Shown: positions 3,781 through 52,568 of the stretch, one piece after another
Layout of the letters: the number at the start of each line of letters is the position of its first letter
Numbering within the stretch: position 1 is the stretch's first letter
Origin: an uncultured Verrucomicrobiae bacterium
GTDB lineage: Bacteria; Verrucomicrobiota; Verrucomicrobiia; Opitutales; JABDGR01
Assembly: GCA_963765205.1 (NCBI GenBank)
Contig: CAVXVB010000002.1
Span: 32,001-96,000, forward strand
DNA length: 64,000 nucleotides
Reading direction: 5' to 3'
The notes under the pieces: generated by a model
Database searches by the model: none
What the model saw: the letters and a program-made list of their open reading frames with translations, nothing else
Told to the model about the DNA's origin: nothing
Translations under genes and position numbers: made by a program

Positions 3781-5136
3781 ATGAAGTTATCTTATGTAAT
3801 CCGCCAGCGCCGTTCGACAATCTCCGCGGTGTTTTTTCTCAGCGCGGCCGCGTATTTTCTTTATGCGTTTTTTAGCCAGCGCGAATACACGGCTTATGCG
3901 CTGGTGCAGGGCTATGCGGCGGGCGGGGCGGGCACCGCCGGGAGCCAGCCGGCGGCGGCCAATGACGACTTTAACACCAATGTGCGCATCCTTGAATCCG
4001 ACGAGATGGCGCAGGCGGTGGCGGCGAAACTGAACGACGCCGACCGGGGCCGGATACTGGCGCCCTATACGCATATTTTTCAGATTGGGCCGACGCCGAG
4101 CGTGGCGCAAATTTTACTGGCGGGCCGCATCATCGCACCCGGGCCGTCGGCGCTCAATCTTGACATCGGCTTCCGGCATCCAAACGCGGCGGTGGCGGCG
4201 ACGCTGGCCAACGCCCTGGCCGAAGAATTCCTCCGCCAGCACGATGCGCTGAATGCCGACAAGCTCAAAAACATGGTCGCCGCGTTGCAGGCGCAGGCGG
4301 ATGCGCAGCACAAACGGGCGGACGACATCCAGGCGCAGATGGACGAGCTGACCCAAAAATATGGAGTGACGAACATTGACGCCACATCCGACACGATTCT
4401 GGTCAGCGCCATTGAGGAGTTGAATAAAAAGGTCATTGAGAACAAGGCGGCGCTGGATGAACTGACCTTGCGCGGCCAGCAAATCCAGCAGCAGGCGGAC
4501 GCCAAGAAGCCGCTGTGGGATTTGAACTTCATCGGCAGCCAGCCGCACATCCTGGCGCTGGAGCAGGCGGTGCAGGCGCAGGCCGACCAATTGAAGCAGA
4601 TGCAGGCCCTGGGTTATGCGGACAATGCACCGATCATCACCGACGCCAAGGCCCGGGTGGATGCCGCCATGCAGGAATTGAACGAGGGGGCCGCGGCGGC
4701 GGTGAAGCAGGTGGCCTCCGACCTGGAGGCGGCCCAGAACAACTACAATCAATCGGTGGAGCGGCTCACCAACATGCAGAAGCAGACGGGGGACTTGGCG
4801 CAGCAGCGCGCGAAATATGACGCTTTGCGCAACGATTTGAGCACGGTGCAGCAGATGTATTCCGCGCAAGAAGTGGCGATGGCCAACACGCAAACGAAGG
4901 CGAAGCTGGACGCCGTGACGTATTCGATCGTCGCGCGGGCGGAGGCGCCACCCGAGGCCGACCCGCAGCCGTGGGTCAAGCTGGGGCTGGCCAGCCTGGG
5001 CTGGGGTATGGGTGGTGGAGTGCTGGCCTTGGCCGGTTTCGCCATCTTTATGCCGCCGCCGGTCGAGCAACATGCGGAATACGAGCGCCGCCGCCGCCGC
5101 CACCGGCACTTTCATTCTTCCTCCCGCCGCCGATAA
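3781..5136 (+). CDS. GumC/Wzc-type polysaccharide co-polymerase-like protein without a kinase domain
   Basis: N-terminal [23 protein letters not shown], long coiled coil, Pro-rich AEAPPEADP before a C-terminal TM. Confidence 0.7.
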
Positions 5137-41731: not shown

Positions 41732-44128
41732 TTAAGGTTTCAGGGCGGCGGAAGGGGGTGCAACCGGGGCGGCTGCGATGGGGGCGGCTGCGACAGCCGC
41801 CGTCCCCGCCTCCGGTTGATCTTGCACGTTTTTGCCCAGGCGCTCCAAGTAGGCGATGACGGCGACGATTTCCCGGTCCGGATCGGTGTAGAGGTCTTTA
41901 CCAGGCTTCTTGAGTTCGTCGGCGATGCCTTGGGCCTGCTCCTTGGCCTGGCGGTCAATTTCCGCCGGCGTGAGCGTCAACGGGTAGGGTACACCCAACG
42001 TGCGCAAGGCGTTGATTTTTGACGGGAGCGAGGCGTAGTCGGTGTCGTCATTATACAGCCAGGTGTAGCGCGGCATGATCGAGCCGGGTGAGGTGGAGCG
42101 CGGGTCGGCCAGATGGAGGAAGTGCCAGTCCACGGAGCGTGCCCCGCCTTCGCGGGCCAAGTCGGGGCCATTACGTTTTGAGCCCCACTGGAACGGGTGG
42201 TCATAAATGCTTTCGCCGAGGCGGGAATAATCGCCGTAACGCATCACGTCCGGCAGGAGCGTGCGAATCATCTGCGAATGGCAGAGGTAGCAACCTTCGC
42301 GGATGTAGATGTCACGGCCGGCGAGTTCAAGCGGGGTAAAAGGCGTTTCAATGCGGCCTTCCAGATTTTTGTCGGTGTCGAGCGTGACGGTGGGCAAAAT
42401 TTCAATTGTGCCGCCAATGGCCACCGCGATAAAAGTCAGCACGCCGAACGAGAGTGAGCTGCGGATCAGCCGGTCATACCACTGGCTCCAGGTGGCACCG
42501 GACAATTCGAAGTGAACAATGGCCAGGGCCGTCCATACCGTGAGGCTGACCAAACCGGCGATGCTCCAGAAGCCGCCGCCCAGCAGCCACAGCGCGAAGC
42601 TGACGATGATGGCAAAGCAATAAACCACCGGCGCGTTGAGGAACGTCCCCCCAAAGCTGAGGCGCGCGACCGCCGCGACTGTGGGAATTTGAATGGTGCC
42701 GTTGACCGGCTGGCCGGAGCGCGCGGTGTGCCAGATATTATAGACCAACATGAAAAACCCGCCTAGGTAGAGCGTGCCTCCGACCAAGCGCGTGGCGAGC
42801 ATCGGATGGATGGCCTGGACTGTTTCGAGAAACTGATTTTTCAGCGCCAGGCCGTCCGGGGTGAGCTGGTTGAGCATCAGCCCCTGCGTGATGCCGCTCA
42901 CCCACATTGAGCCGACGTAGAGCAGGATGCCGACCATCCCGATCCAAAAGTGCAGGTTGGCCAGGCTGGTCGAATAGAGCTTGGTGTTCCACAGGCGCGG
43001 AGCTAGCCAGTAGAACATGCCTGCGGCCATAAAGCCGTTCCAACCGAGCGTGCCGCCATGCACATGTGCGATCACCCAATCCGTATAGTGAGCAAGCGCG
43101 TTGACCGACGGAATGGCCAGCAGCGGGCCTTCGAAGGTGGACATTCCATAGAATGTCACACCGGCGGCGAAAAATTTTAAGACGGGATCTATGCGGACCT
43201 TGTCCCACGCGCCGCGCAAGGTGAGCAAGCCGTTCAACATGCCGCCCCAGCTCGGTGCCCAGAGCATCAGGCTAAAGATCATGCCAAGCGTTTGGAGCCA
43301 GGCGGGCAGCGCGGAGTTGAGCAGGTGGTGCGGCCCGGCCCAGATGTAAACAAACACCAGCGACCAGAAGTGGACCACGCTAAGGCGGTAGGAATACACC
43401 GGCCGCTCCGCCGCCTTGGGCAGGTAATAATACATGATGCCCAACACCGGCGTGGTCAAGAAGAAGGCCACCGCGTTGTGCCCATACCACCATTCGACAA
43501 GGGCGTCCTGCACCCCGCCAAACACCGGGTAGCTCTGCAGCATGCTGGTGGGAAGCGAGAGGTGGTTGATGACGTAAAGCATCGCCACCGTGATGATGGT
43601 CGCGATGTAGAACCAGAGGGCCACATAGAGCGTCGGCTCATTCCGCCGCGCCAGCGTCCAGAAAAAATTCACCGCAAAGATTATCCAGATGAGCGCGACG
43701 GCGATGTTGATGGGCCAGATCAACTCGGCGTATTCCTTGCCGCGGGTCAGCCCCAGCGGCAGGGTGATGGCCGCGGCCACAATGATGAGCTGCCAGCCCC
43801 AGAAGTGAATCCACGACAGCGTCTTCGAGGCCAGGCGGCATTTGCACAACCGCTGGGTTGAGTAATAGATGCCCGCGAAAATCATGTTGCCCACGAATGC
43901 GAAGATCGCGCCATTGGTGTGCAGGGGGCGGATGCGACCGAAGGTGATCTCCGCGATGTTGAGATTCACCTGCCAAAAATTGAGCTCGGCGGCGATAAGC
44001 ACGCCGATGGCCATCGCGACGATGGACCAGAAGATGGACGCGCACATGAACCACCGCACGATGCGATCGTCGAATTCAATCGTCGTGAGGCGGGCGCCGG
44101 ATGATGAGGGTTGGGTGGAATCAGTCAT
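41732..44128 (-). CDS. ccoN: Fused cbb3 cytochrome c oxidase subunits I/II (CcoNO)
   Basis: FGRIRPLHTN, WWYGHNAVAF, WAGPHHL and HVH, then GRDIYIREGCYLCHSQMIR, WGSKRNGPDLAR and SIMP. Confidence 0.97.
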   Translation of the reverse strand: MTDSTQPSSSGARLTTIEFDDRIVRWFMCASIFWSIVAMAIGVLIAAELNFWQVNLNIAEITFGRIRPLHTNGAIFAFVGNMIFAGIYYSTQRLCKCRLASKTLSWIHFWGWQLIIVAAAITLPLGLTRGKEYAELIWPINIAVALIWIIFAVNFFWTLARRNEPTLYVALWFYIATIITVAMLYVINHLSLPTSMLQSYPVFGGVQDALVEWWYGHNAVAFFLTTPVLGIMYYYLPKAAERPVYSYRLSVVHFWSLVFVYIWAGPHHLLNSALPAWLQTLGMIFSLMLWAPSWGGMLNGLLTLRGAWDKVRIDPVLKFFAAGVTFYGMSTFEGPLLAIPSVNALAHYTDWVIAHVHGGTLGWNGFMAAGMFYWLAPRLWNTKLYSTSLANLHFWIGMVGILLYVGSMWVSGITQGLMLNQLTPDGLALKNQFLETVQAIHPMLATRLVGGTLYLGGFFMLVYNIWHTARSGQPVNGTIQIPTVAAVARLSFGGTFLNAPVVYCFAIIVSFALWLLGGGFWSIAGLVSLTVWTALAIVHFELSGATWSQWYDRLIRSSLSFGVLTFIAVAIGGTIEILPTVTLDTDKNLEGRIETPFTPLELAGRDIYIREGCYLCHSQMIRTLLPDVMRYGDYSRLGESIYDHPFQWGSKRNGPDLAREGGARSVDWHFLHLADPRSTSPGSIMPRYTWLYNDDTDYASLPSKINALRTLGVPYPLTLTPAEIDRQAKEQAQGIADELKKPGKDLYTDPDREIVAVIAYLERLGKNVQDQPEAGTAAVAAAPIAAAPVAPPSAALKP

Positions 44129-44153
44129 GGTGGAATAAGGAAAAATGCTGGAT

Positions 44154-44339
44154 TTAACGGGTGGTAGGCGGGCTGGGCGGCCGCTGGCGCGCGGGCACGG
44201 GCGTTTCGTCCTCGAGTGGCAGGAGGGACGCTCGCTCGGCGCTGGCAAACGGATGGGAGCGCCAGTCGCGCAGGAACAGCCACGCGAACATCCCGGCGAG
44301 CAGCATGCTCAGGAACATGGTTAGGAAAAGGACTTGCAT
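44154..44339 (-). CDS. ccoS: CcoS-like cbb3 assembly protein
   Basis: Short N-terminal TM followed by ERASLLPLED, first gene of the cluster. Confidence 0.7.
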   Translation of the reverse strand: MQVLFLTMFLSMLLAGMFAWLFLRDWRSHPFASAERASLLPLEDETPVPARQRPPSPPTTR

Positions 44340-45562: not shown

Positions 45563-45598
45563 AAAAGAGCGCCCCCACGGGGAATCGAACCCCGATTT
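45563..45598 (+). repeat. att core duplication (3' end of tRNA-Glu)
   Basis: AAAAGAGCGCCCCCACGGGGAATCGAACCCCGATTT, identical to 52363-52398. Confidence 0.97.
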
Positions 45599-45669
45599 CT
45601 ATACCGCAGGGGTAGGGATTGGTAACTCCCTCTGGATTGGACACTAACAAACGCTGTTGACAGCATTTG

Positions 45670-45690
45670 CTTGTTATAGTTTGCTATAGT
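45670..45690 (+). promoter_or_regulatory. Putative integrase arm-type sites overlapping the int promoter
   Basis: CTTGTTATAGTTTGCTATAGT, identical to 52306-52326; each 10-mer contains TGnTATAGT (extended -10 like). Confidence 0.75.
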
Positions 45691-45691
45691 C

Positions 45692-46867
45692 ATGGCAAGC
45701 ATCTACAAACAACCGGGTTCGCGTTTCTGGTTTGCGCGCTATCGGCTGCCCGATGGCAAGTGGACTGCGAAGACAACCAAACAAAAAGACCGGGGCGCGG
45801 CGCTACGCACGGCCTATGAGTTAGAGGGGCTGGGAGCATCGGCAGTGGAGTTATCGCCTGTTGGCGCGGCCTTGGCGCGCAACGTGCGCGAGATTTACGA
45901 GCGCGCCACCCGGCAAAAGGTGGAAGCCGTCACTGTGGGCGATTTCCTGCGCCAGTGGGTTGCTCGCATCGAAGCCACAAAATCTGCCAACACCGGGAGC
46001 CGATACAAGCAAATTGTGGACTTGCTGCTTGCCTACCTGGGGCCGCAAGGCGAGCGCCGCAACCTTGCCAGCCTCACCCCGACTATTTTGCAAGGCTTCA
46101 TTGACAGCCAATCCGCCACCGGCAAGGGCGCGCACACTGTCGCGCTGGCCGGAAAAATCCTATCCATCGCCCTAAAGTCCGCCGTGCGCGCGGGCTTGTT
46201 AGAGCGCAACCCCGCCGGACAGCTTGACCTGCCCGCCTTTGCGATGAAAGAGCGCGAAGAATTCAGCGCCGCTGAATTGGAATCCCTACTGGCAGAAGCA
46301 CGCGGCACGGAATGGGAAACCGCCGTCCTGTTGGGCGCGTATTGCGGCGCGCGGCTGGGCGATGCCACTTCTATGCGTTGGGAAAACGTTGACCTGGCCG
46401 GGGCCAAAGTAACCTTCACCCCGCAAAAAACCTCCCGGCGGGGCAACAAGGTGGAATTGCCGATACCCCCGCGCGTGCTCGCGCACTTGGAAGGCTTGGC
46501 GGGCCGCGAGGATGCCCAGCACAACGAATTTATCACGCCGGGCTTGGCCGCGCGGGGGATTGGTGGCCGCACCGGGTTAAGCCTTAGCTTCCGCGCCCTC
46601 ATGCGCCGCAGCGGCGTTTCGGGCAAAACCACCGCCAGAGCCAAGGACAGCGCCGCCCGTTCGTTCAGCACAAAATCGTTTCACTCGCTTAGGCATTTTT
46701 TCATTGCCAATATGCACCGTGGGGGAGCCGACGCGGAAACCGCCCAAGCGGGCGCGGGCCACAGTGACGCAAAAGTGCATGAGCGTTACGATCACGACAA
46801 GCGCGACCGCGTGGCGCGCAATCTAAAAGCCGCCGTGGAGAATATCCCCGGCGCGAAAGGGAAATGA
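45692..46867 (+). CDS. Tyrosine recombinase/integrase
   Basis: N-terminal arm-binding-like MASIYKQPGSRFW; catalytic GARLGD, K, FHSLRH, AGHS and RY. Confidence 0.95.
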   Translation: MASIYKQPGSRFWFARYRLPDGKWTAKTTKQKDRGAALRTAYELEGLGASAVELSPVGAALARNVREIYERATRQKVEAVTVGDFLRQWVARIEATKSANTGSRYKQIVDLLLAYLGPQGERRNLASLTPTILQGFIDSQSATGKGAHTVALAGKILSIALKSAVRAGLLERNPAGQLDLPAFAMKEREEFSAAELESLLAEARGTEWETAVLLGAYCGARLGDATSMRWENVDLAGAKVTFTPQKTSRRGNKVELPIPPRVLAHLEGLAGREDAQHNEFITPGLAARGIGGRTGLSLSFRALMRRSGVSGKTTARAKDSAARSFSTKSFHSLRHFFIANMHRGGADAETAQAGAGHSDAKVHERYDHDKRDRVARNLKAAVENIPGAKGK

Positions 46868-47763
46868 TTTCACCCATGAAAGACACTCCCGAAAAAATCA
46901 CTTTGCCGCCAATTCCGCCGGGGGCTGGGTTGGTTTACCAACGGTTCTCCTTTGTCAAACCAGCGCCGCCAACGCCAGAACCAGCGCCGCCAGAGCCAGA
47001 CTATCCGGCAGGATGGCCCTGGGAACTTATGGCGGACAGAGAAAAGCGGATGCCGGATTGGAAGATGCGGGCGGACGCCGAAAAGGCCGATTTCACTGAT
47101 GGGGTTGCTAAGGGATGCGTGACCGCACTTCACCAAGGAGCCCGCAAAGGCAACATAATTGCCACTATTCATCTGCTCGAATTAAGCCGGGATATTTGTG
47201 AGCGGCTCGCGTCTCTGGCAGCCGATTCTGGCTTACACGCTCAATTGCGTTCTTTGGCTTGTCTTTACCCAACCTTTCCAGTTTTGGTGGGGCGCAATAG
47301 TCTTAACAAGGGCCGTGAGAAAAATCTTTTAGAAAGTCTGCACGTCGGCGAATCTGTCCCTTTCAGCAACCCTTACCGAAAGCGCCCAGGGAGGCGAGTC
47401 AGTTTTTCAAAAAATATCGTAAACCAATGGGCGAGGCTGATTCTCAATCATATTTTATTTTATCATCAATTTCTCGCGCTGGGTGGAAAGCTGGATAAAC
47501 CGTGGCCCGCTTGGCTAACAGCGGCAATGCCGATTCCTCCGCTGAATGAGAGCACGGCCAAGGATTGGCTAGAGATTGCGTGGGCTTTAATCATGGAAGA
47601 AACCGGCCAGCACCCCGAGGACATTGACTGGTTAAGAGAAATTGGCGAAAAGCGCGGACGCAAAGCAAAGGGAACACCGGCCAGCAAAAACAAAGCGATT
47701 CGCCGGGGCCTAAAGGAGACATTGGGCGAAGCCATTGAACGCCTTGCGCGGATTGCTGGATAA
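46864..47763 (+). CDS. Hypothetical protein coupled to the integrase
   Basis: 299 aa ORF with ATGA overlap on the int stop; AT-richer core. Confidence 0.7.
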   Translation: MISPMKDTPEKITLPPIPPGAGLVYQRFSFVKPAPPTPEPAPPEPDYPAGWPWELMADREKRMPDWKMRADAEKADFTDGVAKGCVTALHQGARKGNIIATIHLLELSRDICERLASLAADSGLHAQLRSLACLYPTFPVLVGRNSLNKGREKNLLESLHVGESVPFSNPYRKRPGRRVSFSKNIVNQWARLILNHILFYHQFLALGGKLDKPWPAWLTAAMPIPPLNESTAKDWLEIAWALIMEETGQHPEDIDWLREIGEKRGRKAKGTPASKNKAIRRGLKETLGEAIERLARIAG

Positions 47764-47842
47764 AAAACTCCCGAGTTTATTTTAATAAAGTAGGTAAAAA
47801 GTTTCGTCAATTCAGTGGCGGAGATAGGTGTATAAAGTGGGC

Positions 47843-48148
47843 ATGAGCAAATCATCTCTGCCCGCACGCGACGGCGGTTTTACAACAGTCGCGCCAATCG
47901 TGGCCGCGCCCGTGGCCACTATCGCCCCGGAATTTTTACGACTCCCGACGGGGCGCAATGTCGAGCCGTTAAGCGGCCTCCGCAGAAGCCAGCTTTATAA
48001 CCTGATTGCCGAGCGGAAAATCCAAGCGATTTCCCTACGCCCCAGAGGCAAGGCGCGCGGAACCCGGCTGCTTGTCGCGCAATCAGTCAGAAATTATTTG
48101 CACGGCCTCGCCATTGAACAGAACCCGCCGCAGACTATCACACAATAA
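47843..48148 (+). CDS. AlpA/excisionase-like DNA-binding protein
   Basis: EFLRLP...LSGLRRSQLYNLI...R...SV..YL MerR-like wHTH pattern; upstream of the replication genes. Confidence 0.75.
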   Translation: MSKSSLPARDGGFTTVAPIVAAPVATIAPEFLRLPTGRNVEPLSGLRRSQLYNLIAERKIQAISLRPRGKARGTRLLVAQSVRNYLHGLAIEQNPPQTITQ

Positions 48149-48238
48149 CCACTAACCTATTTGCCCACCACCGGGCGAGCGTTGCCAAAACAATGCCCGC
48201 CCCCAGCGTCAACTGGAAGGCGGGCGAAACCAATCACT

Positions 48239-49405
48239 ATGGAAACGATACAAAATACAACGTCACCACGTCAAGACACAACGCCACAATCCAGCGGCGA
48301 TGCTACCAAACCACCACCGCCACCTGACGCAATTTGTGCCGCTGCCGCAGCGCCGGAGAACGCCCCACACACTCCGCCACCGGGAGCGGGTCGCATTATC
48401 CACTTCCCGCCACCGTCAAACTTGCTTGGCTCACTCGATAAGCGCCCCAAAACTGTTTCCTTGGACACGATTAAACGGGCGGTGTTAAACGAGTCCACCT
48501 TTGATGCGTTGGATATTCCCCATCGGCCCGCCTTGCTGGGCGATTGGTTTTTGGCGGGCGATCTGGGGTTTATCTATGCCCCGCGCGGCGGGGGTAAAAC
48601 GTGGATTGCTCTGGCGTTGGCGCGCGCGCTGGCAGAAGGCGGCAAGTGCGGGCCGTGGCAAGCTCACGTTCCCGTCAAATGCCTCTACGTTGACGGCGAA
48701 ATGCCCTTGGATGAAATGCGAAAACGCAACCAGTCCTTGCGCGGCGCTGCCGGGGATAATCTGATTTTTCTTTCCCACCAACGAAACTTTGACGTTGGCG
48801 TGGATAACCTTTGTTTGACTGACCCGGAGTCGCAAAACGCCCTCACAGAGTTTTGCGTCGAGACGGGAATTAAAGTATTATATCTTGACAACCTAAGCAC
48901 GCTGTTTACCCGCGTGGAAGAAAACAAAGCCGATGCCTGGCGGGATTCTGTCGAGGGTTGGCTTTTGAAATTGCGGCGGCACGGTGTTGCCGTGGTCATC
49001 ATCGCCCATGCCGGGCGCAATGGAGAGATGAGGGGAACGAGCAAGCGCGAGGATTGCGCCTTCTGGCAAATCTGTCTTGAACCAATGGAAAAAAGCGGTG
49101 AAGGAGTGCGCTTCACCTCCCGCTTTACTAAAAACCGCAACGCGACGGAAGACCCGCCGCCCCTCAAATGGCACTTCCGCCCCGATAACGGGCGCGTGGT
49201 GATTTCATGGGAAGAAGCCGACGCCTTGCAAATTCTGCGCGCGCATATTGAGGGTGGCTTGGAAACGTGCTCTGAAATCGCCGAGGATATGGGTATTGCC
49301 AAATCCACGGTTTCCAAACTCGCCAAGCAGGCGGAGCGGGCGGGTTGGTTGAAAATCACCGGCACCGGCAACCAGCGCCATTATAAGCTCAAAACCGATG
49401 CCTGA
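48239..49405 (+). CDS. AAA_25/RepA-like helicase with a C-terminal wHTH
   Basis: Walker A APRGGGKT, LYVDGEM, Walker B LYLDNLS, IIAHAG, RGTSKRED and EIAEDMGIAKSTVSK. Confidence 0.88.
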   Translation: METIQNTTSPRQDTTPQSSGDATKPPPPPDAICAAAAAPENAPHTPPPGAGRIIHFPPPSNLLGSLDKRPKTVSLDTIKRAVLNESTFDALDIPHRPALLGDWFLAGDLGFIYAPRGGGKTWIALALARALAEGGKCGPWQAHVPVKCLYVDGEMPLDEMRKRNQSLRGAAGDNLIFLSHQRNFDVGVDNLCLTDPESQNALTEFCVETGIKVLYLDNLSTLFTRVEENKADAWRDSVEGWLLKLRRHGVAVVIIAHAGRNGEMRGTSKREDCAFWQICLEPMEKSGEGVRFTSRFTKNRNATEDPPPLKWHFRPDNGRVVISWEEADALQILRAHIEGGLETCSEIAEDMGIAKSTVSKLAKQAERAGWLKITGTGNQRHYKLKTDA

Positions 49406-49419
49406 CCCGGCTTCCCATC

Positions 49420-49578
49420 GGAAACGGAGCCATGCCATTCGTTTCCTGTTTTCCAAAAGTCATGTTTGCGACTCGTTTCCGCGTTTCCCCTATGAGGAAA
49501 CAAAAAGCGCCCTCTCGTTTCCACTTTCGTTTCCACTCCGTTTCTCGTTCTCCACCTATAGGCAGTAAACAGGAAACG
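49420..49578. repeat. Iteron-like cluster (CGTTTCC/GGAAACG), putative replication origin
   Basis: Seven exact copies in both orientations plus near-copies within about 160 bp between helicase and primase. Confidence 0.7.
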
Positions 49579-49590
49579 AGCATCCCCGCC

Positions 49591-50598
49591 ATGCCCCTAG
49601 ACCTTGCCCGCTTGGAAAACGCCCGCCAGCGCGGCAACCGCCTGACGGCCCGCTGCCCGGCCTGTGCCGAAACCGGGTCCGACCGCAAAGGCGAGCACTT
49701 GGCGATCTTCGCGGATGGCCGGTTTGCCTGCGTTATGAATCCCGGCCCGGCGGGCGAAGTCCACCGCCAGCGCATTTTCGATCTGGCCGGAATCAAAGAG
49801 CACCCCGGCCAGCCCGCCCGCGCCCCCGTCATTGCCCTACAGCGGCCCCAACCCGCCCGGCCAGCCCTTCACCTTCCGCCGTTGCGCCGATTGACCGTGG
49901 GGGAAATGCTCGCCATTATCAAGTTGCGCGGCTGGCCGATGGATGCCGGGTTGGAATTGCTCACGCGACGCGGCTTGCTCTGGCAGGGCAACGTCTTTGA
50001 CGGCGGGGAGCACCACCCCGCTTGGATCGTGACAGATAGTGCCCGCCGCAACGCGCAAGCCCGCCGTCTTGACGGCCAGCCCTGGCAGGGCATCAAAGGC
50101 GCAAAGGCCAAAAGCCTGCCCGGCTCGCAAGCATCCTGGCCGATAGGCGCGCCGGAAATCGGCGCGCGCCCGTTCGTCATGCTTTGCGAAGGCGGCCCTG
50201 ATTTTCTCGCGGCGCTGCTTGTGGCATGGTTTGAAAGCGAGCGCATGGCCGGATTCAGTGTCGAGCACGCGGCCCCGGTTTGCCTGTGCGGCGCGGGTCA
50301 AACGATTCCCCCCGATGCGCTGGATTTCTTCACGGGCAAGCACGTTAGAATTTTCATCCATGCCGACGATGAAGGAAACGCGGCGGCAAAACGCTGGGCC
50401 GCGCAACTTTACCAAGCGCGCGCAAAGAGCGTTGACGGCTTCGACTTCGCCGGACTCACCCGCCCCGACGGCCAGCCCGTCAAAGACCTGGCCGACTTTG
50501 CCAAGTTACTTGACCCGGAAGACCCGCCAGTTGCGCGGGCGCTGGCCGGATTGGCGACGAAGGCAGAGGCGGAGCGGTTCGCGGCGTTATCGTCGTGA
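49591..50598 (+). CDS. Primase-like protein (Zn finger + Toprim)
   Basis: ARCPAC...EHL...FAC zinc-binding motif; CEGGPD, HADDEG and KDLAD Toprim motifs. Confidence 0.8.
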   Translation: MPLDLARLENARQRGNRLTARCPACAETGSDRKGEHLAIFADGRFACVMNPGPAGEVHRQRIFDLAGIKEHPGQPARAPVIALQRPQPARPALHLPPLRRLTVGEMLAIIKLRGWPMDAGLELLTRRGLLWQGNVFDGGEHHPAWIVTDSARRNAQARRLDGQPWQGIKGAKAKSLPGSQASWPIGAPEIGARPFVMLCEGGPDFLAALLVAWFESERMAGFSVEHAAPVCLCGAGQTIPPDALDFFTGKHVRIFIHADDEGNAAAKRWAAQLYQARAKSVDGFDFAGLTRPDGQPVKDLADFAKLLDPEDPPVARALAGLATKAEAERFAALSS

Positions 50599-51294
50599 TT
50601 ATTTCCAAATCATGGTGTATTTTACAATGACGGTTTGCTTCAAAACCTTATTGGACATTACATCGTAACTGAGAAGTTTGCTCGTTTGTTCCTCGATGGC
50701 ATAGGCCGTCAATTTTTTCCCTTGTTTGAGCCAATTGAGAAATTGAGTTTGCGTCGGGCCGGGTTCGGCACCGACTTCCTGATAGCATTTGATCGTTCGT
50801 TTCGCACCCAAAACGGTGATGTAGGAATACGGGTCAGTCGCCACAACCCAAAGAATGCCGCAATCTTGATTATCCACCCAGTCTTTGTGCGAAGCGATGG
50901 TTTTTAACGCGAAATCGTCGCAAATAAAGAGCGTTGGGCTGACCACCTGCGTCACCTGAATGTCCATGAAATCCGCGTTTTCCAACGAGGGCTTGACAAT
51001 GATCGCGCCGGTTTTATCCGTCGTGTAGTAACTTTGGACATCGGCAAAGAGTTCGAGCAATTTATCCCGAGTTTCGACGGCACCGCGCTGGCCCACTTCG
51101 CTTACATAAAATGTTCTTTCCTGAATTTTTGGCTCCGGCGCAGGGGATGGAGCGCCGCTATAATTGACGCCCGCTTGGCTCCCCCCAATGCTGCGCAAGC
51201 CAACCTGTCCGAGCGCCGGTAAAGTGATAAGACTTAATGCTAGGCAAGTCAGGATTTTCATGGAGGAAAAAAGATGGGTAAGTGTCGCCCTCAT
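50599..51294 (-). CDS. Hypothetical exported protein (element cargo)
   Basis: Signal peptide KILTCLALSLITLPALG; ATGA overlap with the terS-like gene. Confidence 0.7.
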   Translation of the reverse strand: MRATLTHLFSSMKILTCLALSLITLPALGQVGLRSIGGSQAGVNYSGAPSPAPEPKIQERTFYVSEVGQRGAVETRDKLLELFADVQSYYTTDKTGAIIVKPSLENADFMDIQVTQVVSPTLFICDDFALKTIASHKDWVDNQDCGILWVVATDPYSYITVLGAKRTIKCYQEVGAEPGPTQTQFLNWLKQGKKLTAYAIEEQTSKLLSYDVMSNKVLKQTVIVKYTMIWK

Positions 51295-52061
51295 GCCGCC
51301 TCTTTGGTCGTGCTTTCCGTCAGCCCCGCCGCAAACCTGTTCTTTTGGAAGCGCGCAAACATCTTGTTCACCTCGTCGCGGTAAATCGCCCGCTGCTCCG
51401 CCCGCGTCTTGTCTTCCGCCCGCACGATGAAGCGGTCAAAGAGACTGAAAATCTCGGTGGCGATGCCGCCATGAATCTTAGCCAGTTCGCCCGTCATTTG
51501 CTCAATTTTGGCATACTGGCCGGCCTTCTCCGAAACCGCCAACGCCGCCAATTCCAGTTTGCGCATGGATTCAGAGACGGCGGTGAACTGTTTTTCAAGC
51601 GTGTTCAAAATCCGGGCGTTGGGCGCGGCCCGCGCTTCCTCCGCTTCCAACCGCGCCGCAATTTTGCCCGCCCGCCGCCGCGTGGCCGTGAGTAGCATCC
51701 CAAAGTCCATTTCCTCGACTGGCAGCCCCAGCAGCGGCGGGGAATCCGCCGGGTTATCTCTCCGGGGAGACAACGGCATGGACATCGGCAGCATCCGGGC
51801 ATCCGCCGGGGGCAACTCCGGTTGCAAACCGGGGCTGGGGCCATCGGCGGCAGCCTCAATCCGATCCCGCACTCCCGCGTTCAAATCGCGCTGGATATGC
51901 TGCTCTAGCCATCCCAGCAATTTGCCCGGCTCAGTCACCGGGCATTCATCCCCGGCAGCCCGGCCTTTAGCTACCCAAAGCCTAAGTGTCCGGGTTGTCA
52001 CCCCATAGAGGTCAGCCCAATCTTGCCGGGATTGCGGCTCTAATGAAATTTCCGCTTCCAC
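51291..52061 (-). CDS. Terminase small subunit-like protein (lambda Nu1-like)
   Basis: N-terminal SRQDWADLYGVTTRTLRLWVAKG resembles the Nu1 wHTH; coiled coil RKLELAAL..SEKAGQY followed by a helical tail. Confidence 0.7.
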   Translation of the reverse strand: MEAEISLEPQSRQDWADLYGVTTRTLRLWVAKGRAAGDECPVTEPGKLLGWLEQHIQRDLNAGVRDRIEAAADGPSPGLQPELPPADARMLPMSMPLSPRRDNPADSPPLLGLPVEEMDFGMLLTATRRRAGKIAARLEAEEARAAPNARILNTLEKQFTAVSESMRKLELAALAVSEKAGQYAKIEQMTGELAKIHGGIATEIFSLFDRFIVRAEDKTRAEQRAIYRDEVNKMFARFQKNRFAAGLTESTTKEAA

Positions 52062-52305
52062 TGGGGAAAATTAACCCTCCCTCATAGCGGAAGCAAGGAA
52101 ATTTGTTTTTCCAAGCCCCCGCGCGAAAACCTCCAAGGAGTGCCCAACACCCTGGGGGGCCATAAACCTTTTCAAAGAGAATCCCTAGCACCCCTAGTGG
52201 GGGCGGGGGGTCAGGGCGGGGGCAACCTACCTGCCGGAGATTGTGGGCGAAGGGGTAGCCCACTGGCCCGGCAGTAATGGAAAACACTACTGCACACTAG
52301 CTGGC

Positions 52306-52358
52306 CTTGTTATAGTTTGCTATAGTTTTGGCGCTGAAATCTTCGTAAGTCTTTGATT
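52306..52358. promoter_or_regulatory. Arm-type repeat and IHF-like site next to the att core
   Basis: CTTGTTATAGTTTGCTATAGT at 52306-52326; minus-strand AATCAAAGACTTA (52346-52358) fits WATCAANNNNTTR. Confidence 0.7.
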
Positions 52359-52369
52359 ATCAAAAAGAG

Positions 52370-52441
52370 CGCCCCCACGGGGAATCGAACCCCGATTTGA
52401 AGAATGAGAATCTTCCGTCCTAACCGTTAGACGATGGGGAC
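52370..52441 (-). tRNA. tRNA-Glu(CTC)
   Basis: GTCCCCA/TGGGGGC acceptor stem, GAAGA-TTCTCAT-TCTTC anticodon arm, CGGGG-TTCGATT-CCCCG T arm; CCA not encoded. Confidence 0.96.
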
Positions 52442-52446
52442 AAGCT

Positions 52447-52561
52447 GCCAGAAGCGAGAAGCTAGAAGATAGAAGGCAGAATGCCAAGCGCGAAGAAGCG
52501 GATTCATCCAAATGGCATCTTTCTTTGTTTCCATTCTAGCTTCTAGCTTCTAGCTTCTAGC
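52447..52561. repeat. Inverted pair of heptamer tandem arrays
   Basis: GNNAGAA x5 (52447-52481) facing TTCTAGC x4 (52534-52561). Confidence 0.85.
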
Positions 52562-52568
52562 TCCCACC

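Follow-up and report, generated by a model that had tools for sequence, protein, structure and literature searches.

We analyzed a 64,000-nucleotide stretch of DNA from an uncultured verrucomicrobial bacterium (hereafter the window), in which a sequence-only reading had proposed a phage satellite integrated in a tRNA-Glu gene. The element is delimited by two direct repeats of 36 bp, attL (45563-45598) and attR (52363-52398), which are 100% identical and spaced 6800 bp apart. The right copy lies within and just past an intact tRNA-Glu(CUC) gene identified by ARAGORN (52369-52441, minus strand), the integration target, and comprises the last 30 nt of this gene and 6 nt downstream of it. The left copy is a displaced copy of the tRNA-Glu 3' end. 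A 22-mer of the repeat core was found only twice in the 4.02-Mb genome, in both cases at the att copies. The repeat search and ARAGORN confirmed the limits that had been proposed for the element. Between the repeats lie seven open reading frames (ORFs), all open and intact, in agreement with the earlier claim that none carries a frameshift.

Genes of the element

The first gene (int; 45692-46867, plus strand) encodes a tyrosine integrase (PF00589, E 4.6e-12; phrog_1, E 7.8e-46) that is 57-60% identical to the integrases of two other islands, L012 and L013. Its TGA stop codon overlaps the ATG of ORF2 (46864-47763, plus strand) as ATGA, an arrangement resembling the integrase-overlapping gene (iolg) of the phage-inducible chromosomal minimalist islands, known as PICMIs. 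ORF2 itself matched no family in Pfam, PHROGs, or NCBIfam and yielded neither a homolog nor an Atlas lead. At 9 of 17 related int loci, the int stop is overlapped in the same way, as [A/G]TGA, by the start of an ORF of at least 60 aa. By analogy with the PICMI iolg (PMC10803314), ORF2 may play a role in excision. ORF3 (47828-48148, plus strand) is a small AlpA/Xis-like helix-turn-helix (HTH) protein, whose match to Pfam AlpA (PF05930, E 0.055) is below the cut-off. In 11 loci, homologs are found at this same place, with int on one side and the replication genes on the other, and two of them match HTH_17 at E 5e-4 and 3e-3, again below the cut-off.

The next two genes are predicted to serve replication. 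ORF4 (48161-49405, plus strand) encodes a RepA/DnaB-like AAA_25 helicase (PF13481, E 2.8e-24; phrog_906, E 2e-12) with a C-terminal winged HTH (HTH_29, E 9e-5). Between ORF4 and ORF5 we found a cluster of CGTTTCC iterons in both orientations (49420-49578), a putative replication origin: 7 of the 24 CGTTTCC matches of the window fall within these 159 bp, and a whole-window shuffle gave a mean of 15.6. The region also holds a 12-nt tandem unit, and its folding is unremarkable (z = -1.78). ORF5 (49591-50598, plus strand) probably has its true start at 49591, after the iterons. It has no Pfam match of its own; a search for homologs recovered 413. Its CxxC motifs support its reading as a Zn-finger/Toprim primase that would work with ORF4, as do relatives with Toprim_2 or with a fused helicase domain (AAA_25, DUF3987, or DUF5906). 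PADLOC gave a weak DnaG-like match (E 0.0012).

The last two genes lie on the minus strand. The one next to the right end (51291-52061) encodes a 256-aa homolog of the small terminase subunit (TerS) of the Nu1 type (phrog_57, E 4.9e-5). The other (50599-51294) encodes an accessory protein predicted to be exported from its N-terminal signal-like hydrophobic stretch; it matched no family in Pfam, PHROGs, or NCBIfam, no homolog, and no Atlas entry. The ATG of the exported-protein gene overlaps the TerS stop as ATGA, which indicates that the two genes form one operon. Between the TerS start and the right arm repeat described below lies a noncoding stretch (52062-52305) holding no ORF with a family match. 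The TerS promoter and a cos/pac site would be expected here, although a packaging-site role is purely conjectural. Scans for promoters and terminators gave nothing above shuffled sequences.

This anatomy corresponds to the gene content given by the sequence-only reading (an integrase, an ORF, an AlpA/Xis-like gene, an AAA helicase, iterons, and a primase on the plus strand, followed by an exported protein and a TerS-like gene on the minus strand), the AlpA match being the weak one. Its statement that genes for capsid, portal, large terminase subunit (TerL), tail, lysis, relaxase, and repressor are missing held as well, since none of the seven ORFs matched such a family (the repressor being of the cI type) in Pfam, PHROGs, or NCBIfam.

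The G+C content is about 0.53 over the exported-protein gene (50400-51400) and about 0.65-0.68 over the preceding primase gene. This drop is consistent with a separately acquired cargo.

A small terminase homolog of the Nu1 type

Several lines of evidence indicate that the 256-aa protein is very likely a remote Nu1-type TerS. Its match to phrog_57 covers residues 169-250, the C-terminal third only, and profile positions 100-181 of 199. As lambda Nu1 (NC_001416) matches the same profile with an E-value of 1.3e-76 (Pfam Phage_Nu1, E 2.5e-100), phrog_57 represents the Nu1 family. In a word-based protein search with the TerS, the only matches were the gene call of the window itself (P0001) and a single true relative, which lies on a contig of 1257 nt. 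A full HMMER search with the protein and its one 62%-identical relative retrieved 111 representatives at E <= 0.001, and among 40 scanned relatives with long matches, 15 matched phrog_57 at E <= 0.01, some of them over profile positions 15-173 of 199.

We then compared profiles, using an alignment of 48 rows, in which the query and its close relative were joined by 46 hits picked from the 111 for near full-length matches. The best matches in the PDB were Nu1-type N-terminal domains (6hn7_B, E 0.015; 1j9i, E 0.045; 7lw0, E 0.052), and hhalign aligned the family with lambda Nu1 over 54 columns of the N-terminal winged HTH (80.7% probability, E 1.3e-5). RppC reached only an E-value of 0.72. The comparison with gpNu1 and Rpp suggested by the sequence-only reading thus came out in favor of gpNu1, and the use of Rpp as an example of a TerS homolog was loose, the window protein resembling TerS and not Rpp.

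The strongest evidence, however, is the gene position of the relatives. The TerS family occurs in 7 of 401 sampled genomes of the phylum, including the genome of the window. At four of the six other verrucomicrobial loci (L030, L031, L033, and L035), the TerS relative lies directly upstream of, or overlaps, a GpA-type TerL gene (PF05876 plus PF20454), which is followed by portal (phrog_21), protease, and capsid genes; for L030, the sole portal scanned against Pfam, the lambda family (PF05136) was confirmed. Full-length relatives in the Nu1 position beside a GpA-type TerL, together with the 15 phrog_57 matches, set the protein apart from generic HTH proteins, to which, as the sequence-only reading had cautioned, its similarity might have been confined. 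The TerS of the element is an orphan, because there is no TerL in the element or in the genome.

The predicted fold spoke neither for nor against the TerS assignment. The predicted local distance difference test (pLDDT) score rose from 55.6 with a 2-sequence alignment to 84.1 with 48 sequences, and in the latter model an N-terminal helical domain is joined by a disordered, low-confidence linker of about 40 residues to a bundle of long helical hairpins. With this model, Foldseek gave no match in the PDB or BFVD at E <= 0.001, a wide VIA fold search matched only the generic helical hairpin (residues 116-208), and phmmer with the single protein gave only coiled-coil noise in the PDB. Compared to lambda gpNu1, the protein shares the N-terminal winged HTH, a C-terminal part aligning to phrog_57, and relatives that precede a GpA-type TerL. 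However, it is longer (256 aa versus 181 aa), contains the low-confidence linker of about 40 residues, does not match PF07471, and has no TerL beside its gene.

The two remaining verrucomicrobial loci differ in content. L032 (G206:C72, 9586-10314) carries a phrog_57 TerS (E 5.1e-13) beside an ERCC4-type nuclease, with no recognizable TerL downstream of it within this 11.9-kb sequence, and may be a further orphan. At L034 (G250:C38, 408-9495), a TerS-family match (3986-4498) lies in a compact locus together with a head maturation protease, a primosomal-like protein, a short integrase, and an excisionase-type HTH protein. This locus may represent a small prophage or else a satellite that forms capsids, the picking of ORFs being confounded there by a long antisense ORF.

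A family of related elements with variable cargo

To find elements of similar build, we used a profile of 42 aligned ORF5 homologs, which gave 171 confirmed stretches in species-representative genomes; the best 80 of the 171 were kept as loci and belong mostly to the Opitutae and other Verrucomicrobiota. Of the 401 genomes sampled for the phylum, 15 contain ORF5-family matches; the genome of the window has one. The layout of int, an optional gene, an alpA-like gene, and AAA/primase genes recurs in many of these loci. The search for elements of the same gene order, as called for by the sequence-only reading, was successful: six further elements are bounded by att repeats of which the right one lies in a tRNA gene, oriented as in the window element. 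They are integrated in the genes for tRNA-Gly (L046, repeat spacing 5859 bp), tRNA-Leu (L047, 6571 bp), tRNA-Ala (L070, 7807 bp), tRNA-Cys (L097, 6486 bp, and L103, 9459 bp), and tRNA-Val (L072, 7697 bp), and thus measure 5.9-9.5 kb.

Across the family, the stretch from the primase gene to the att site is variable cargo. We scanned this cargo against PHROGs at 34 loci, 15 of them with greedily picked non-overlapping ORFs of at least 60 aa and 19 with ORFs of at least 90 aa within 5 kb; shorter or overlapped ORFs were dropped, so that the counts are lower bounds. At least 3 of the 34 loci carry an orphan TerS of another lineage, with no TerL beside it. The TerS of L097 matches phrog_1482 (E 8.2e-39) and Sf6_terminase (PF20901, E 1.6e-36), and that of L072 matches phrog_1206 (E 2.2e-7). 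The TerS of L044 matches phrog_57 (E 2.3e-13); by hhalign, it is not similar to the TerS family of the window element, and the hidden Markov model (HMM) of that family matched at 0 of the 80 loci. TerS is thus accessory in this backbone family, yet repeatedly acquired, as would be expected if the elements depend on phage packaging. Homologs of the TerL, portal, protease, and capsid proteins of the verrucomicrobial prophages were found within 9 kb of the primase homolog at 0 of the 80 loci.

The two islands with the related integrases carry quite different genes. L012 (G001:C273, 1393-10601) has an int-overlapping gene, an alpA-like gene 61% identical to that of the window element, and an ORF of 2102 aa without a Pfam match. 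L013 (G008:C35, 1129-5354) carries a 935-aa SMC_N/AAA_21/AAA_23 protein as cargo.

The integration site and the ends of the element

Just inside the att sites we detected a second pair of repeats, 25 of 27 nt being identical. The left copy (45670-45696), which adjoins the start codon of int, is 72 nt inward of attL, and the right copy (52306-52332) is 31 nt inward of attR. Each consists of two tandem TTG[T/C]TATAGT 10-mers. Upon excision, they would come to lie on either side of the core in the circle, like the arm sites of integrases, which makes them candidate arm sites for Int; an operator is the other candidate role. Similarly, the related element L070 has a 22-nt pair of a different sequence at equivalent positions flanking its core.

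An alignment with relatives placed the break at attL after ...CCCCGATTT. In genomes of the same genus, too, the tRNA-Glu gene adjoins a DUF5069 gene. One congener (G005) has the order DUF892, tRNA-Glu, DUF5069, with the site unoccupied and no integrase. In another (G006), the same DUF892 gene is followed by a tRNA-Glu 3' fragment, a sequence resembling the attL arm, and, where the contig ends, the beginning of an int gene. The tRNA-Glu site is thus used by a related element in one congener and empty in another. This comparison concerns the tRNA side, the cbb3-oxidase flank and the tRNA-Glu side being on separate contigs in the relatives. An unoccupied site, for which the sequence-only reading had proposed to look, was thus seen on that side alone.

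The gene call for ORF2 (P0233) is recorded on a contig of 6824 nt, which corresponds to the 6764 nt separating the att repeats, extended by 30 nt at either end. This contig is probably the product of a k=31 assembly graph breaking at the 36-bp repeat and thus probably no evidence of a free circle.

Comparison with known satellites

The closest likeness in layout is with the PICMIs. PICMI115 of the Vibrionaceae is described as a 6.1-kb element made up of int, an iolg that overlaps int by ATGA and is required for excision, alpA, prim, and a hotspot for accessory genes; it encodes no terminase, and a virulent helper packages it as 8-mers in capsids of full size (Barcia-Cruz et al. 2024, PMC10803314). 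The window element has a comparable size (about 6-7 kb) and the same order of int, an ATGA-overlapping gene, an alpA-like gene, a replication gene, a short accessory slot, and att. It lacks capsid-remodeling and structural genes as well as a resident helper prophage, the reported PICMI helpers being virulent phages (PMC10803314). However, PICMIs lie beside fis and have a primase with DUF3987 or DUF5906, whereas the window element lies in tRNA-Glu and has an AAA_25 helicase and a separate Zn-finger/Toprim protein, ORF4 and ORF5 matching neither domain. Furthermore, PICMIs have no terminase gene, the host phylum is different, and there is no detectable sequence relationship. With respect to the PICMI model of SatelliteFinder, we found the integrase (PF00589, PF00239, or PF07508) through PF00589, neither the DUF3987/DUF5906 primase nor the fis site, and for AlpA (PF05930 or PF12728) only the PF05930 match of ORF3 mentioned above.

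Phage-inducible chromosomal islands (PICIs), which include the SaPIs and the islands of Gram-negative bacteria, usually measure 10-15 kb, and the window element is about half this size. In the cos-type PICIs of Escherichia coli, Rpp re-aims the phage's own TerS, whereas the TerS of the window element is of the Nu1 type, with relatives paired with a GpA-type TerL. The likeness to PICIs lies in the integrase, the candidate alpA-type regulator, the primase-replication (pri-rep) genes with an origin, the small terminase, by which PICIs redirect the packaging of their helper, and the specific att site. As core components, de Sousa et al. 2023 (PMC10085698) name an integrase, pri-rep, TerS, capsid morphogenesis, and a regulator homologous to alpA, merR, or stl. 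We found the integrase, pri-rep with an origin (from Pfam/PHROGs matches and the iterons), and TerS, as well as the absence of tail, holin, portal, and connector genes; for the regulator, we found the below-threshold AlpA match of ORF3 at its conserved position. Unlike the full set, the element has no capsid morphogenesis gene, no ORF matching a head or capsid family; Type B PICIs are described as lacking it too (PMC10085698). More than 99.9% of the 1436 PICIs detected in that study belong to Proteobacteria or Firmicutes, and its main text does not contain the string "Verrucomicrob."

The virion-encapsidated integrative mobile elements (VEIMEs) are marine elements packaged in virions, some of which were found integrated in Verrucomicrobia genomes and some of which have TerS homologs (Eppley et al. 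2022, PMC9618062). Compared by their description, they resemble the window element as small integrative elements with integrases, primase/helicases, AlpA, and in some cases TerS homologs. However, VEIMEs are defined by their recovery from virus particles as concatemers and are marine, whereas the window element is known from its genes and the runs containing it are labeled soil metagenome. The element differs from P4-like satellites in that psu, sid, delta, and the P4 alpha-type primase were unmatched in PHROGs and Pfam.

The element as a candidate phage satellite

With moderate confidence, we interpret the element as an integrated, apparently intact small phage satellite of the PICI/PICMI kind. 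Its architecture of int, an int-overlapping gene, an alpA-like gene, replication genes, an accessory slot, and att matches that of the PICMIs, and four of the five core functions of PICIs are represented (integrase, regulator, pri-rep, and TerS), the match of the AlpA-like regulator being below threshold.

From these genes, the following cycle can be proposed. Infection by a helper phage would turn on the AlpA-like regulator, after which Int and the product of the int-overlapping gene would excise the element by recombining the 36-bp att sites, with the TTG[T/C]TATAGT repeats as arm sites. The AAA_25 helicase/initiator would bind the CGTTTCC iterons through its winged HTH, and the helicase and the Zn-finger/Toprim primase would amplify the circle, probably to concatemers. 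The N-terminal winged HTH of the orphan TerS could then recognize a site in the element's DNA, and the C-terminal part of the protein, aligned in the Nu1 family profile with the half that binds TerL, may recruit the GpA-type TerL of the helper, so that multimers of the 6.8-kb unit would enter helper capsids. After injection into a new cell, Int would reinsert the element at tRNA-Glu. The host genome lacks TerL, capsid, and portal genes, and any helper must therefore come from outside, as for PICMIs.

Several observations weigh against this interpretation. We found no helper phage: the host genome, 92% complete, contains no TerL of PF03354, PF05876, or PF03237, no HK97 capsid (PF05065), and no lambda portal (PF05136), so that the resident helper prophage with a GpA-type TerL sought by the sequence-only reading was not found there. 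Nor did we find a recognizable cos/pac site, the region 52040-52400 holding only short repeats of chance size, or a circle junction. The part of the earlier proposal that concerns anatomy and TerS assignment was thus upheld, and the hijacking of packaging remains inferred. In four public DNA runs (one study, contigs only), no joints were present, the contigs breaking at the 36-bp repeat; no RNA run containing the element is listed. The exact empty site with the element's own left flank was not recovered among relatives, their tRNA-Glu neighborhood showing no synteny with this flank, which carries a 168-aa ORF and a cbb3 oxidase. The TerS-like protein is remotely similar to Nu1, its PDB matches having marginal E-values; it has no Pfam terminase match (Phage_Nu1, PF07471, unmatched at E <= 0.1), and scans of viral, genome, and metagenome contigs gave no close relatives. 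The AlpA assignment of ORF3, below threshold in Pfam, is weak. Finally, TerS is not conserved in the backbone family, with 0 of 80 loci by HMM and 3 of 34 with any TerS PHROG.

This last point fits an alternative in which the element integrates and replicates by itself as an island, with no packaging by phages. Its TerS would be cargo that poisons or misdirects the terminase of invading GpA-type phages, as a means of interference or defense, or a co-opted DNA-binding regulator, and would not serve the spread of the element itself. Indeed, the TerS gene occupies the accessory slot, which extends from the primase gene to att and in relatives contains unrelated genes (a serine recombinase in L070), it is co-transcribed with the exported protein, and related integrases carry other cargo (the SMC/AAA_21-like protein of L013 and the 2102-aa protein of L012). 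Furthermore, the accessory slot of PICMIs is reported to house defense genes (PMC10803314). However, PADLOC found no defense family in the cargo of five relatives or in the exported protein and TerS of the element, and both domains of the TerS are conserved over the full length with the 62%-identical relative, which argues for a working terminase subunit. Moreover, interference and self-packaging do not exclude each other in known PICIs. On balance, we regard an island of this sort, the main rival to the satellite reading, as possible but rather unlikely.

If TerS were dispensable for transfer, the element could also work in the manner of PICMIs, the helper's own terminase recognizing a DNA motif. 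The terminase-free PICMIs, packaged as 8-mer concatemers, match it in size and architecture (PMC10803314), and most of its backbone relatives have no TerS at all. It is hard to explain without a packaging benefit, however, that four elements of the family gained TerS genes of four lineages in one slot, and we consider this version improbable.

The verrucomicrobial prophages L030 and L031 have primase and helicase genes just upstream of this TerS family, which might suggest that the element arose from a full prophage by deletion, with int, the replication genes, and TerS left over. Such an origin is very improbable, given its perfect att repeats and intact ORFs, the position of TerS on the strand opposite to the replication genes (unlike in prophages), the lack of BLAST similarity of its helicase and primase to those of these prophages at E <= 0.01, the six same-backbone relatives that are complete small elements, and the absence of prophage TerL, portal, protease, and capsid homologs near the primase at the 80 loci. 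The sequence-only reading had named such a remnant as the outcome that would speak against it; we found no longer version of the backbone, the relatives with defined ends all being of 5.9-9.5 kb.

Returning to the satellite interpretation, we tentatively propose that the related elements form a verrucomicrobial family of minimal tRNA-integrating satellites, which may switch helpers by swapping TerS cassettes in the att-side accessory slot. Within this proposal, which we hold to be possible though not the likelier case, Nu1-type TerS would serve for GpA/cos phages and Sf6-type TerS for pac phages.

Satellites in the Verrucomicrobiota

To our knowledge, characterized phage satellites come almost entirely from Proteobacteria and Firmicutes. 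Our full-text search of the literature found no characterization of a verrucomicrobial phage satellite, in agreement with the sequence-only reading, which knew of none. The novelty is softened, though, by the VEIMEs: since some of these were reported integrated in Verrucomicrobia, some with TerS homologs, satellites in this phylum were anticipated, although not characterized (PMC9618062).

A PICMI-like minimal element with its own Nu1-type TerS would extend satellites to the Verrucomicrobiota with a defined set of seven ORFs. The more interesting result is the comparative one, namely, a single integration and replication backbone with TerS genes of different lineages in one slot. Such an exchange on a shared backbone suggests a simple route by which satellites could change helpers. 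If this holds true, the TerS-swapping family would be the first satellite family defined for the phylum and a natural example of modular re-targeting of packaging. An orphan TerS beside this primase family is also a candidate marker for satellites and helpers in soil and freshwater metagenomes.

Flanking sequences

On the cbb3 side, the ORF at 41732-44248 (minus strand, 838 aa) resembles a fused CcoN-CcoO and is 87-91% identical in its longest tblastx matches to same-genus genomes. On the other side, between tRNA-Glu and the DUF5069 gene (52447-52562), we found 4.1 copies of the 7-mer TTCTAGC (52534-52562) and GCCAGAA-like units (52447-52486). The TTCTAGC-type stretch matches many scattered contigs of a same-genus genome (G003) and resembles a dispersed short repeat.

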